Positions 3,176 to 39,227 of a stretch of 64,000 nt of DNA are shown piece after piece (within the stretch, counting starts at the first letter, position 1; every line of letters begins with the position of its first letter). The stretch is taken from the sequence record OQ708377.1. One strand, written 5' to 3'. Origin of the DNA: Escherichia phage vB_EcoM_CRP22. The position numbers were made by a program, and so were the translations under genes. Below the pieces are notes generated by a model. The model ran no database searches, had not been told where the DNA came from, and was given only the letters and a program-made list of their open reading frames with translations.

Positions 3176-3757
3176 TCAAGAGTATTTTTTAGGCAGTAAT
3201 GCACTACGTTTGTTGCTCTCTTCACTCAACAGTGCGATAAAATCGTCACCTTTGCCTTTCCACGGGCTGAATGAAGGGATATGTTCACGAATGGCTTCAA
3301 TCACCGTCTTAAGTGCTGTATTTTTCATCCACCAGTCAGAATCTGCTGATGCTACAACATAGTAGCCACCTTCATCAGTCAGGATTGGCTCTGAGATACA
3401 TGGTGAAATCAGAGTGGTGATGATTGAACCATTATTCATGTAGTATGTGCGCTTCATAACCTTTTCAAGAAGCTTGTGAAGGTCACCAAACAGTGTTACA
3501 AGCTCTTTATGGTCAATGTCTTTTTCAAGATTTGCTCGATACTTCAAAAGTGCAGCATCAACTTCTCTGTCATTAAACTTGAAGTACTGGACTTCTTCAA
3601 CAAGACAAACACTGATGTTGTTGACATTCATAGTCAACTTGCAGACTTTTGCAGGAGAATTGATATTTGGTTGAAAAAGTGCAATACACCCTTCAATGTT
3701 TCCAAAATGTTGTACTAATGTCACTTGTGGAGTGATACTTTGTTGCTCTTCGGACAT
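3176..3757 (-). CDS. hypothetical protein
   Basis: 193-aa ORF. Confidence 0.45.
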   Translation of the reverse strand: MSEEQQSITPQVTLVQHFGNIEGCIALFQPNINSPAKVCKLTMNVNNISVCLVEEVQYFKFNDREVDAALLKYRANLEKDIDHKELVTLFGDLHKLLEKVMKRTYYMNNGSIITTLISPCISEPILTDEGGYYVVASADSDWWMKNTALKTVIEAIREHIPSFSPWKGKGDDFIALLSEESNKRSALLPKKYS

Positions 3758-34966: not shown

Positions 34967-36154
34967 ATGGCAGTAGGTGAAATTCAAATTAGTGCCTTGC
35001 CTCAAGCAGCCTTACCAATTGACCTTAGTGATATCTTCCATCTTAAGCAGGGTATTGAGGATAAGAGGTGTACTCTTGAGCAATTACTTGCTCCACACTC
35101 AAGTCTAAAAAATAACCCTCATGGTGTTACTAAAACACAAATTGGTTTAGATAATGTTATTAATGCTCTTCAATTAGTTGCTGCAAATAACTTATCAGAT
35201 ATTGTTAATGTAGCTGAGGCAAGAGCAAATCTACAGATTATGTCTTCAGAAGAGGTTAATAACCTTGTCCAGCAACATACCAAGGACAAGAGTAACCCAC
35301 ACAATACAACTAAGGCACAGGTTGGTTTAAGTAATGTCCAGAACTGGACAACATCTAATCTGTATAACGAAGATGCAGATAAGTATGCTACAGCAAGAGC
35401 AGTAAATAACTTGTACAAGGCTGTTCAGGCTTCTTATCCAGTAGGTACTATCCATCTTTCTATGAACTCTGCAAACCCTTCTACATACTTAATTTGTGGA
35501 GGTACTTGGGAGTTAGTTTCAAAAGGTAGGGCATTGGTTGGTTATGACTCTGAGACAAGGCCAGCAGGTTCTGTATTTGGTGCTTCAACTGTCACTTTGT
35601 CAGTTAATAACATGCCTCAACACTCACACTCTGTATCTCTTAGTGGTGGTGGTCACACTCATAATGCAACTGTTTCAATTTCAGCTTTTGACTATGGGAC
35701 TAAGACTACCAACTCTTTTGACTATGGGACTAAGACTACTAACACAACTGGTAACCACAACCATGTTGGTAGTGGGTCAACAAGTGCTGCTGGTGCTCAC
35801 AACCACAGATTAACCTATGAAGCGGGTGGTGGTCTATCGGAAAGACCTGCAATGGTCTGGTCTTCAAGGAATGACCAATCGTGGTACTCAGCAGATGTTG
35901 TCTGTGAAGTCGCTGGTGCGCACACCCACTCTTTCAGTGTTACCACCAACACAACTGGTGACCACAACCATACGGTGGGTATTGGTGCTCACAGTCACAC
36001 AGTTGGTATTGGTTCGCATACGCACAATGGTACTGTGACAGTTTCTTCTTCTGAGCATACGCATAGTGGAAACACGAACAGTGTTGGTGGAGGTCAGGCT
36101 GTGAATATTGAGCAGCCATCCTTTGTACTTTATGTATGGCAGAGAACAGCTTAA
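34967..36154 (+). CDS. tail fibre protein with His-rich C-terminal repeats
   Basis: 395 aa; C-terminal HxH motifs ([38 protein letters not shown]) typical of tail fibre tips; contains a 30-bp tandem duplication. Confidence 0.65.
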   Translation: MAVGEIQISALPQAALPIDLSDIFHLKQGIEDKRCTLEQLLAPHSSLKNNPHGVTKTQIGLDNVINALQLVAANNLSDIVNVAEARANLQIMSSEEVNNLVQQHTKDKSNPHNTTKAQVGLSNVQNWTTSNLYNEDADKYATARAVNNLYKAVQASYPVGTIHLSMNSANPSTYLICGGTWELVSKGRALVGYDSETRPAGSVFGASTVTLSVNNMPQHSHSVSLSGGGHTHNATVSISAFDYGTKTTNSFDYGTKTTNTTGNHNHVGSGSTSAAGAHNHRLTYEAGGGLSERPAMVWSSRNDQSWYSADVVCEVAGAHTHSFSVTTNTTGDHNHTVGIGAHSHTVGIGSHTHNGTVTVSSSEHTHSGNTNSVGGGQAVNIEQPSFVLYVWQRTA

Positions 36155-36164
36155 TTTCTTTACA

Positions 36165-36186
36165 GGGGCTTGAAAGCCCCTTTTTA
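36165..36186 (+). terminator. Rho-independent terminator
   Basis: ggggcttgaaagcccc followed by TTTTT. Confidence 0.7.
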
Positions 36187-36200
36187 GAGGAAAATTTATA

Positions 36201-38582
36201 ATGGCAGATTACAAGTTGAGTGAATTAAACTCAATCGACACAATCCGTTCAGATGACCTTCTTCATGTCAGGGTTAAAAAGAGACCTGAAATGCTGGGTG
36301 ATGAAGACCGTCGAATGACCTATCAAGACTTCTTAGCATCTTTTAAACTTGAAAGATTTGTTCAGATTGCTGGTAGCACCATGACGGGCGACTTAGGGAT
36401 TGTTAAGTTACTTTATGGTGGTAAGGCAGTATTTGACCCAACAGGCTCTTCTGAGATTACTATTGGGGATGTTTTAAAGACTTTTAAAATCAACGCAAAT
36501 GGTCTTAAACTAACTATTGCAGACGCTTCAAGGTCGGCAACTGTTTATCATACTCTGAATAAGCCAAGTCCTAATGAGCTTGGGATGAGAACTAATGAAG
36601 AGAATGACGCAAGATACTCAAGATTAACGGCAAATAACATCTTCACCTTCCAGCAAATTATCCAAGCAAATGGTGAAGCTCTTAGGGTAAAAAACTCTTC
36701 TGAGAACTCACCGTTGTATATCAGAGGTCAGGATAGTGCTGGGAATAATAGGTGGTATGTAGGTAATGGCTCAGGGAGTGATGATGTTACTATCTCCAAC
36801 TACAAGACTGGTTCCTATGTTAATCTTGCTAACGATATTGCTATCAATAAAACACTAAAAATCACTGGTCAAGTTCAACCTTCTGATTTCTCTAACTTAG
36901 ATGCTAGATATTTTACTCAGACAGTAGCTAATCAGAGATTTGCACAGTTAGCTGGCAATAATACATTTAGTGGCGTTAATACATTTAACCAAATCTTATC
37001 GATTCAGACGAATAATGCAGCTTTAAGACTGAAAAGCACTGTAGCAAGTGGTGCGCTATACATTAAAGCTGAAACCAATGATGGTGCTGGCAGATGGTAT
37101 GTAGGTAATGGCGATAATACACCTTCTGTATTAATCCACAACTATACGTATGGCTCTAATCTTAGACTTGATAATGGTTATGTTGAAGTTAACAAGCAGC
37201 TTAGGGTTGTTGGTCAAATTCAACCTTCTGATTGGACTAACATTGACTCTAGATATATTCCGGCGGGAACTTTGAGTAATCTTGCTAAGTTAAGTGATGT
37301 AAACACTTTTAGGATGGCACAGATTATTAATCAGAATGGCTCATTGTTACAGCTAAAGAACACTACACAAGACAGAGAGCTATACTTTGCTGGTCATAAT
37401 GCTGATGGTGTTAGAAGGTGGTACATCGGTAATGGGGAACCATCCAATCCAACAAGACTTACTATCCGCAACGACAGAACTGCAACTACGCTTTATATGC
37501 AAGATGATTTCTTGTTGGATAAAAATGTAAGAATCACTGGTCAAGTTCAACCTTCTGATTTCTCTAACTTAGATGCTAGATATTTCGTAAAAACAAAACT
37601 GTTAAGCCAATCTTTAATGACAAGGACAGCTAACAGGCTTGAGAGCGCGTCATCATTTAACAAAGATTATTCGGGATTTGTAAGAAACAACGGTATTGAG
37701 CAGGGTCTGAAAGATTTAGCCATCCATGTAGCACATTCTGCTGGTATTGCTCATGCCAGAGGTATTGCTTTTACATATGGGTCTAAAGGTCTTGATGTCT
37801 TCACATATGCTTATGGGTCAGGTGGAACATATGTTGGAGAGGCACAGTTGTATTCAACGGCATTTAAACCAACCCCTTCAGATATTGGTGCATACACTAA
37901 AACAGAAACTGACCAGAAAATTGCAACAGCAATTAGTGACTCTACAGACCTTAATAAAATCTATCCAGTAGGTATTGTAACGTGGTTTAACAGTAATGTT
38001 AACCCTAATACAGCACTTCCTGGTCTAACTTGGACATACCTAAACAATGGTGTTGGTAGAACTATCAGAATCGCAGCAGCAAACGGTTCAGATGTTGCTA
38101 CAACTGGTGGTTCAGACTCTGTAACGTTAGCTGTTGGTAACTTACCATCACACACTCACAGTTTCTCTGCTACCACTTCATCTTTTGATTATGGTACAAA
38201 GGGAACTAACAGTACTGGTGGACATACTCACTCTGTAAGTGGTACAACAAGTGCTGCTGGTAACCATGCTCACCACTTAGGTCTGCTATTGGTTAATGGT
38301 GGTGATGCTTTGTACGGATATACAACAGTTGGTAACAGTCTCCCTAGAACGCTTGACTGGCTTGAGAGAAGAGATAACAAGTTCCCTAACACTAACACAA
38401 CTGGTAACCATACACACACATGGTCTGGTACTACAAGCGGTGCTGGTGACCATTCCCACTCTGTAGGCATTGGTGCTCACAGCCACACAGTTAGTGGTAA
38501 CACTGGTAGTACAGGTTCTGGTTCAGCATTTAGTGTTACTAACCAGTTCTATAAATTAATGGCTTGGGTGAGAACTGCTTAA
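36201..38582 (+). CDS. long tail fibre protein with internal repeats and His-rich C-terminal module
   Basis: 793 aa; three ~115-aa internal repeats ([18 protein letters not shown]); C-terminal HTHS/HSHS motifs ending ...WVRTA, matching the end of 34967..36154 (...WQRTA). Confidence 0.7.
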
Positions 38583-38661: not shown

Positions 38662-38859
38662 ATGCCTACAATCCTAGCAATTCTTCTAAAAAATCTAGGT
38701 AGCTTCTTCTGGAAACTCATTTTATCCCTTCTAAGTGAATACATGATTGAGAAAGTGTTCTTTAGGCTTGCAAGGTATCTTGCAAGTAAAACAGACACAC
38801 CTATTGATGATGAGTTCGTAGATAACTTAGAAAAAGCTTTTAAGGGGGAGAATAAATGA
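38662..38859 (+). CDS. small membrane protein (holin-like candidate)
   Basis: 65 aa with N-terminal hydrophobic segment ILAILLKNLGSFFWKLILSLL and charged C-terminus. Confidence 0.35.
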   Translation: MPTILAILLKNLGSFFWKLILSLLSEYMIEKVFFRLARYLASKTDTPIDDEFVDNLEKAFKGENK

Positions 38860-39227
38860 AGTGGCTAGAGGAAGCTTTTAAAAATAATATTGGTGCAATT
38901 GTAGTTGGTATTTTTAGTGTTATTGGGATGTATACCACCATGCAAGTCTCGGATGGTAAGCAAGAAGTGTCTATCACAACAAAGTTACAGCAGTTAGATA
39001 ATTATTCCAAAAGTAATTATTCAGCTATTCGTGATTTACAGTCTGATGTGAGGCTGCTTCAGCTAGGGATGGAGAACCAGAAAGTCCAGTTAGAGAATGT
39101 TAAGGGTGAGAACGCAAAACTTACTAAGACTCTTGATAAATTCTCTGATAGTGTGAACAATCTGGCTCAATCAGTATCAGCCCTCCAAGCTATTACTGAA
39201 AAGAACACAAAGAATACTGAAAAGTAA
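38856..39227 (+). CDS. membrane-anchored coiled-coil protein (spanin-like or lysis-associated candidate)
   Basis: 123 aa; N-terminal TM IGAIVVGIFSVIGMY followed by heptad-like Q/L-rich region. Confidence 0.35.
   Translation: MKWLEEAFKNNIGAIVVGIFSVIGMYTTMQVSDGKQEVSITTKLQQLDNYSKSNYSAIRDLQSDVRLLQLGMENQKVQLENVKGENAKLTKTLDKFSDSVNNLAQSVSALQAITEKNTKNTEK

Follow-up and report, generated by a model that had tools for sequence, protein, structure and literature searches.

The closest known counterparts of the tail fibres considered here are gp26 and gp27 of Escherichia phage JohannRWettstein (Bas63), a phage of the same genus with the same gene order, whose long fibre contains beta-domain repeats split by helix-turn motifs, in a number that is constant across the genus (PMC12609058). 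In Bas63 as well as in Sf14, both fibres carry a T4 gp37-like tip of collar, needle and head with HxH motifs (PMC12609058, PMC11821841), and a structure atlas treats the fibres of the Ounavirinae as a class of their own, in which a T4-like needle tip is joined to the rod via a gp10-like domain. For the T-even phages, the work of Tetart et al. (1996, 1998), as PMC3157838 relates it, maps exchanges in distal fibre and adhesin genes to conserved motifs or their vicinity, and the swapping of fibrous modules accounts for how plastic these genes are. Here, we describe two tail fibre genes at positions 34967-38582 of a window of 64,000 nucleotides (nt) from Escherichia phage vB_EcoM_CRP22 (OQ708377.1), which by sequence comparison are the short tail fibre (STF) and long tail fibre (LTF) genes of the baseplate of a Felixounavirus (Felix O1-like myophage). 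We regard it as very likely that both products carry gp37-type tips and that their variable segments have been exchanged as cassettes by recombination at conserved segments.

The two open reading frames (ORFs) lie on the plus strand, as do all features given below unless stated otherwise. The STF gene (34967-36154, 395 amino acids, aa) ends in ...LYVWQRTA and is the counterpart of Bas63 gp26 and Sf14 gp52; the LTF gene (36201-38582, 793 aa) ends in ...LMAWVRTA and corresponds to Bas63 gp27 and Sf14 gp53. The presence of two fibre genes, which had been proposed from the letters of the sequence, is borne out by the ORFs themselves, by full-length matches of the STF to phrog_2097 tail fibre (E 1e-134) and of the LTF to phrog_4277, and by synteny with Bas63. 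At the protein level, the STF is 98% identical to that of Shigella phage Z31 and 74% to that of Bas63, and the LTF is 65% identical to the Bas63 LTF; LTF homologues in the protein database are 72-92% identical, the best of them at 92%. A megablast of the region matched 239 phage records, nearly all Felixounavirus, and a 24-kb query around it was 96.5% identical to Z31 and 94.5% identical to Bas63. The relatives compared throughout comprise 29 with DNA and 120 homologous database proteins, the latter being the best matches to the window clustered at 90% identity; the set of LTFs has 141 unique members.

Homology and domain layout can be read directly from the alignments. STF residues 157-395 and LTF residues 588-793 are 36% identical (E 2e-26). 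GIGAHSHTV and GxHxH occur in each, the STF closes with VWQRTA and the LTF with AWVRTA, and these features substantiate the common His-rich C-terminal module of the original prediction. Both fibres match the T4 gp37 tip (PDB 2XGF; STF E 1.9e-26, LTF E 8e-19), with the collar, FDYGTK and the successive GxHxH motifs aligned residue by residue; the number of HxH motifs is 9 in the STF and 6 in the LTF, compared with 7 in T4 gp37. The STF collar (aa 141-215, 35387-35611) resembles the collars of T4 gp10 and gp37, aligning to 2XGF from residue 18 on and to the T4 gp10 C-terminal domain (E 7e-5), and the STF also scores well above the cut-off of 27 bits for Pfam Gp10_C (67.6 bits, E 2.8e-18). The LTF collar (aa 586-650, 37956-38150), which aligns to the STF collar and to gp37 of the Tequatrovirus phage sutha, stays slightly under that cut-off with 26.1 bits. 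Nucleotide conservation among the relatives is 76-100% for the STF collar and 90-97% for the LTF collar in all relatives but L013 (63%). On this homology, both fibres are predicted to end in a T4 gp37-type receptor-binding tip of collar, needle and head. In T4, the long fibre that bears this tip is built from four proteins, whereas the tip in the window sits on a single-protein fibre directly on a simple baseplate.

For Bas63, cryo-electron microscopy (cryo-EM) density and AlphaFold models describe a six-stranded trimeric needle whose C-terminus returns to the collar (PMC12609058). By analogy, each chain in the window's fibres would run out to a small head and fold back, bringing the C-terminus ...W[Q/V]RTA to the collar again. 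The HxH motifs of the three chains would then coordinate iron ions, as placed at these motifs in the T4 gp37 structure 2XGF by Bartual et al. 2010 as cited in PMC12609058, and receptor binding would presumably fall to the heads. The receptor of the genus is lipopolysaccharide (LPS), and Bas63 depends on the LPS core (PMC8594841). The length of the needle varies between alleles, as relatives carry 7 or 9 HxH motifs in the STF and 4 or 6 in the LTF. Within the STF needle of the window, a tandem duplication of 30 nt (35685-35743, 25 nt of it exact) encodes SFDYGTKTTN twice; most relatives have two copies of this motif and the rest have none or one, including the Bas63-type STFs with 7 HxH motifs rather than 9.

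In both genes, the variable segment of the tip is the head, which is flanked by conserved sequence on the FDYGTK/HxH side and on the side of the later His motifs. The STF head cassette (aa 261-330 approximately, 35747-35956) lies between conserved His motifs and starts after FDYGTKTTN; its nucleotide identity to relatives is 10-40%, compared with 80-100% on either side. It is followed by the ascending needle strand and C-terminus ...VWQRTA (35957-36154), with HxH motifs at residues 333, 342, 351 and 364 that align to the His motifs of 2XGF and with a C-terminus kept in all relatives. The LTF head cassette with its flanking His motifs spans aa 658-764 (38172-38491), and the core that varies within Felixounavirus (aa 681-750 approximately) starts after GGHTHSVSG. 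The head-flanking segments are at the same time the DNA segments common to STF and LTF within the window (repeat families D2-D7). A layout of this kind might also arise without any recombination, if the conserved segments are kept for trimer folding and metal binding only and the variable ones have diverged in place, which is essentially the first option that the Bas63 authors offer for their variable beta-helix domains (PMC12609058). In keeping with such a history, the conserved segments are the structural ones, namely linkers, collar and HxH strands; as an account of this locus, we nevertheless consider it improbable on the evidence of the heads and shaft domains across phages.

The heads of the STF and LTF in the window are unrelated to each other beyond the flanking motifs. 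In Felix O1 (L036, NC_005282, 901-4466), the head regions of STF and LTF are instead 81% identical over 270 nt, and in the Salmonella phage UAB_Phi87 (L022, 2533-6098) they are 91% identical over 200 nt. The Felix O1-type head was found in 78 phage records, 70 of which are Salmonella phages, and mostly in two places per record. The identities within these genomes indicate exchange of head cassettes from one fibre gene to the other. The window's own head alleles have a different distribution, with the STF head in 31 phage records, mostly from E. coli phages, and the LTF head in 35 records, almost all from E. coli or Shigella phages or unannotated Felixounavirus.

The LTF head also reaches beyond the family. 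Positions 38172-38491 are 90% identical over 320 nt to gp37 of the Tequatrovirus phages sutha (L037, PV245934) and BYEP01 (L038, OR757453), at 3432-3751 in both records, and the encoded protein is near-identical; both genomes have approximately 168 kb. Outside this segment, collar and C-terminus show family-level similarity only, and the boundaries of the shared cassette fall at SSFDYGTK and GIGAHxHTV. Both phages came from the best 8 of the 35 records matching the LTF head, and further T4-like phages may carry it. The comparison indicates that the cassette passed between phage families, and each of its breakpoints lies within a conserved motif. A 320-nt segment that is this similar to a phage of another family, with flanks that are distantly related, speaks against divergence in place.

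The shaft of the LTF tells a similar story. It starts with a baseplate-binding N-terminus and proximal shaft (aa 1-135, 36201-36605), of which the binding role is taken from the Bas63 cryo-EM work (PMC12609058); this region forms one allele class, with 92-98% nucleotide identity in nearly all relatives. Three repeats follow, the second beginning 345 nt (115 aa) after the first and the third 327 nt (109 aa) after the second, in agreement with the three repeats of about 115 aa that had been predicted. Pairwise protein alignment gives 33-40% identity among them, and Pfam PF20744 (gp37_trimer) matches in three stretches (E 6e-62); a BLASTP of the LTF against itself returned the identity match only, and the repeats were demonstrated by repeat search, Pfam and pairwise alignment. 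Each repeat has a body and a junction: R1 (aa 145-216, 36633-36848, allele R1.1), J1 (aa 217-258, 36849-36974, one allele class), R2 (aa 259-333, 36975-37199, allele R2.0, with position-specific alleles), J2 (aa 337-366, 37209-37298, conserved across relatives and 74% identical in nucleotides to J1 and J3 within the window), R3 (aa 373-440, 37317-37520, allele R3.1) and J3 (aa 441-462, 37521-37586). A variable middle module (aa 465-585, 37593-37955) with 14 allele classes and 16-94% nucleotide identity to relatives connects the shaft to the collar.

A profile of the repeat bodies, built from 24 representative units, matched the pyramid domain of T7 gp17 (7BOZ/4A0U, E 3e-7) and Mu gp49, fibre protein S (E 0.012). 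The AlphaFold2 model of the LTF, an obligate trimer modelled as a monomer, has a mean predicted local distance difference test score (pLDDT) of 44.5, with three confident beta domains (approximately 150-220, 280-335 and 395-435, pLDDT 70-90), the first of them covering R1, and low-confidence linkers. Foldseek with this low-confidence monomer ranked T7 gp17 (4A0U) first (E 3e-4) and found T4 gp34 at E 0.03; its other matches, such as OspA, are weak and were rejected as noise. Taken together, sequence and model predict three tandem beta domains of the T7 gp17 "pyramid" or T4 gp34 shaft type (4A0T/4A0U, 4UXG, PF20744). The match to gp34 is weak, and unlike the T7 and T4 proteins, the window's shaft belongs to a set with three tandem copies and 11-15 interchangeable alleles at each. 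The original prediction had tied the internal repeats to the swapping or resizing of receptor-binding regions; this tie is not supported, as they lie in the shaft and outside the known receptor-binding tip.

In codon-aligned comparisons, the identity of R1, R2 and R3 to the window is bimodal, at either 85-100% or 45-55% approximately, and independent for each position, with the N-terminus, the three junctions and the collar conserved throughout; sliding windows show sharp changes at the junctions. R1 is 96% identical to SeBD211, 83% to LTH02 and approximately 45-55% to the others. For R2, the values are 84-86% for L001, L002 and Z31, 76% for LTH02 and EF202P1 and approximately 43-55% for most others, and for R3, 96-97% for LF82P2 and L001, 88% for Bas63 and approximately 40-50% for Z31 and LTH02. 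The window's LTF is a patchwork, whose nearest relatives are SeBD211 at R1 (96%), L002 and Z31 at R2 (around 85%), LF82P2 and L001 at R3 (96-97%) and Z31 and LTH02 at the head (98-99%). Bas63 matches the window's cassette type at R3 alone, and its STF has 7 HxH motifs, compared with 9 in the window.

Across the 141 unique LTFs, 13, 15 and 11 allele classes were distinguished at R1, R2 and R3, and their pairwise identities are again bimodal. They occur in 43 combinations, that of the window in five database proteins only, and the two major alleles at each position appear in every one of their eight possible combinations. Fisher tests between the positions of these LTFs gave no significant linkage (p 0.83, 0.12 and 0.05). 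Mosaic pattern and breakpoints are thus visible in the alignments, and we infer homologous recombination as the mechanism of exchange. Divergence in place would be expected to leave graded identities; the bimodal values, the unlinked allele combinations across approximately 340 bp and the sharp changes at the junctions argue against it.

Cassettes also recur at other positions of the same shaft. Among the representative cassettes, pairs from positions 1 and 3 reach 87%, 87% and 67% amino acid identity, compared with a maximum of 48% for positions 1 and 2 or 2 and 3. At position 3 of L034 stands a cassette that matches the window's R1 type with 84% identity over 281 nt, and L033 carries this type at both positions 1 and 3 as a direct repeat of 280 nt with 88% identity. 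This points to cassettes having moved between positions 1 and 3 and not to position 2, and the same cassette at different positions again contradicts divergence in place.

The exact repeat that had been noticed between the ends of repeats 1 and 3 exists, and its extent needs a small correction: it measures 54 bp rather than about 55, with copy A in J1 at 36860-36913 and copy B in J3 at 37532-37585, instead of ending at 36916 and 37586. It is the only exact repeat of at least 30 bp in the whole window. It exists because linkers 1 and 3 share one type (NLDARYF), different from that of J2 (NIDSRYIPA). Given the same 17-residue peptide, identical codons over all 17 positions have a probability of approximately 7.5e-7 under the codon usage of the region, so that protein constraint alone is an insufficient explanation and divergence in place again falls short. 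The same calculation has a second side, as the shared peptide alone predicts 78% nucleotide identity and J1 and J3 in most relatives are near that value (72-93%), just as divergence in place would have it. Their longest exact run in relatives is 4-49 nt, and the 54 bp of the window are the extreme of this range. As the sole explanation, divergence in place is contradicted by the sum of these observations.

Under the reading by recombination, N-terminus, linkers, collar and FDYGTK/HxH strands would be conserved for structural reasons, as trimer linkers and metal-coordinating strands. As a by-product, these segments would offer the stretches of homology at which general recombination acts when phages co-infect a cell, and the three beta-domain bodies, the middle module and the head would be exchanged as cassettes in between. 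The original prediction had named shared modules and internal repeats, both of which were found by repeat search and alignment, as substrates for recombination that could swap or resize parts of the fibres. Swapping is supported, on comparative grounds, by the bimodal cassettes, the heads common to both fibres and the gp37 cassette.

Resizing fared differently. If internal repeats chiefly served to change length, unequal crossing-over at the junctions would add or delete units, and one LTF does look like its product: P0113 (L035) has 680 aa and two repeats, with the crossover inside a 31-nt exact match of J1 and J2 and a sequence 97-99% identical to L001. It comes, however, from a single short-read contig of 2362 nt (Logan SRR8427688, gene at 44-2086), and may be either a genuine unequal-crossover deletion or an assembly collapse at the 31-nt repeat. 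The other 140 of the 141 LTFs keep three repeats at the same positions, with junction motifs around residues 224, 338 and 447, the repeat number is described as constant in the genus, and the Bas63 paper gives no variation in it (PMC12609058). LTF lengths do range from 764 to 855 aa, and this range maps to alternatives of the middle module and to start-codon calls; an unrelated allele of the module, approximately 60 aa longer, accounts for the LTFs of 840-855 aa (L014, L016, L018, L019, L023 and P0116). Length also varies in the needle, whose HxH count differs among relatives in both fibres as given above, which is in line with a role of repeats in sizing. On balance, length change as the chief role of the internal repeats is hardly probable, and the exchange of cassettes at constant repeat number is the reading that we retain.

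Tail fibre tips are also the classic targets of programmed diversification, either by a diversity-generating retroelement or by an invertible segment as in Mu and P1, and the Sf14 paper likens its fibres to those of Mu (PMC11821841). For the present genes, judged by their layout, repeats and cassettes and with no scan of the whole window aimed at a reverse transcriptase or invertase, such a system is extremely improbable: both are on one strand and both proteins occur together in the virion, the longest inverted repeat flanking the tips measures 24 nt at 75% identity, and the J1/J3 pair stands alone as an exact repeat of at least 30 bp in 64 kb. Moreover, the cassettes differ wholesale, in approximately 50-80% of their residues, and not by substitutions scattered over one and the same allele.

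Several points weigh against exchange at conserved segments as we propose it. Recombination, iron binding and receptor binding are all argued here from comparison and homology rather than from experiment. The AlphaFold2 monomer has a pLDDT below 50 over residues 436-793 and gives no confident tip structure, and the predicted needle fold is therefore based on homology of sequence and on published cryo-EM. As the sample of 120 proteins is biased to the window's relatives, allele frequencies and linkage tests are biased as well. Positions 1 and 3 have no more than a short N-x-F motif in common in their 5' flanks, which leaves the hopping between them unexplained in detail. Finally, J1-J3 identity is 0.824 within genomes and 0.804 between them, with a similarly small excess for J1-J2 and J2-J3. 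This small excess is weak evidence for continuing gene conversion between junctions and may reflect genome-wide relatedness, and concerted evolution of J1 and J3 is not claimed.

The neighbourhood of the fibre genes follows the Felixounavirus arrangement. Upstream lie ORFs of 489 aa (Pfam Baseplate_J), 285 aa (DUF2612, sub-threshold) and 100 aa, and together with the fibre genes they equal Bas63 gp23-gp27 in order and protein lengths, named wedge 2, wedge 1, LTF platform, STF and LTF in that phage (PMC12609058); ORF lengths and order are the same in Z31, DE7 and Felix O1. Downstream of the LTF, two small ORFs of 65 and 123 aa (38662-39227), the first with PF26925 (Phage_PM2_Gpl) in relatives, are followed by thymidylate synthase and dihydrofolate reductase genes on the opposite strand. 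Neither of the two downstream ORFs is a tail fibre assembly chaperone of the gp38 or gp57A type, and no such gene adjoins the fibre genes. In the Tequatrovirus phage sutha, unlike the window, a tail fibre assembly protein gene comes after gp37; an adjacent assembly chaperone is a trait of the T4 system rather than of the tip fold.

Within the gap of 46 nt between the STF stop and the LTF start, a GC-rich hairpin, GGGGCTTGAAAGCCCC, followed by TTTTT, occupies 36164-36184 with a folding energy of -17.7 kcal/mol (z -3.1). It was not listed by a consensus promoter and terminator scan, which inside the fibre genes found nothing above shuffled expectation. Conceivable roles of the hairpin are those of a partial terminator or of an element with a stabilising effect between the STF and LTF genes.

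Further motifs were seen in the proximal parts of both fibres. NPHxxTKxQ[IV]GLxNV occurs twice in the STF shaft (aa 49-65 and 109-125, 35111-35161 and 35291-35341), and these copies are the probable counterparts of the helix-turn motifs reported from the Bas63 STF (PMC12609058). Both fibres also carry E-D-[KR]-R-[CM]-T in their N-terminal part (STF aa 31-36, 35057-35074; LTF aa 35-40, 36303-36320), and the Sf14 paper discusses the same motif for baseplate attachment, with Cys in the short and Met in the long fibre (PMC11821841).

In database records, some labels and gene calls for these fibres differ from the above. The Bas63 GenBank entry calls the 382-aa fibre "long tail fiber protein" and the 784-aa fibre "tail fiber protein", which is the reverse of the cryo-EM paper, and a JGI entry calls one LTF homologue a protein tyrosine phosphatase (DUF442). 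Felixounavirus fibre genes with approximately 88% identity also stand in "Staphylococcus phage SA1" (GU169904, 147 kb) and in some "Campylobacter" records. In two IMG/VR genomes (L015, 3755-6125; L021, 3750-6093), the LTF is split into two ORFs, by either a frameshift or stop codon or else a sequencing error.

The fibre architecture that the original prediction had noticed is already known, having been published in 2025 for this well-studied genus. The fibre sections of the Bas63 and Sf14 papers are without recombination, cassette reassortment or exchange between fibres (PMC12609058, PMC11821841), and in the searchable literature we found no description of freely reassorting Felixounavirus shaft cassettes, of transfer between positions 1 and 3, of a shared head on both Felix O1-type fibres or of a head cassette common to Felixounavirus and Tequatrovirus. 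PMC8614997 was considered as a report of Felixounavirus cassettes and set aside, as it concerns Tequatrovirus. The closest model is that of the T-even phages, in which variable specificity segments are bounded by short motifs in the same way as the window's head and shaft cassettes. Differences are that the present case concerns Ounavirinae, with two paralogous fibre genes, exchange between genes and between positions 1 and 3, and comparative evidence only. Thus, our results incrementally extend a recombination principle known since the 1990s and do not amount to a new kind of system.

In practical terms, the three linkers, FDYGTK and GIGAHxHTV are natural in-frame breakpoints, at which, by the comparative evidence, shaft and head cassettes were exchanged time and again. 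They would be of use where the host range of Felix O1-like phages is engineered for therapy or diagnostics. For the biology of the genus, the contrast between phages stands out: in Felix O1 and further Salmonella phages, one head type recurs on both fibres, whereas the window's phage, of E. coli/Shigella type, has two different ones. The link of head type to host is a comparative association, with 70 of 78 records from Salmonella phages for the Felix O1-type head and the window's heads in E. coli and Shigella phages. The Bas63 authors found the variability of beta-helix domains 2-5 unexpected and offered mutation tolerance, host recognition or escape from defence as explanations (PMC12609058). 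The cassette pattern argues against simple mutational drift, which leaves host recognition and defence escape. As a tentative possibility, the shaft beta domains may form a reassorting, combinatorial second layer of specificity, selected for lateral glycan binding or for escape from defence. If true, this would answer the question of the Bas63 authors on domains 2-5, and the specificity layer of the shaft would sit beside a pool of heads common to Felixounavirus and T4-like phages.

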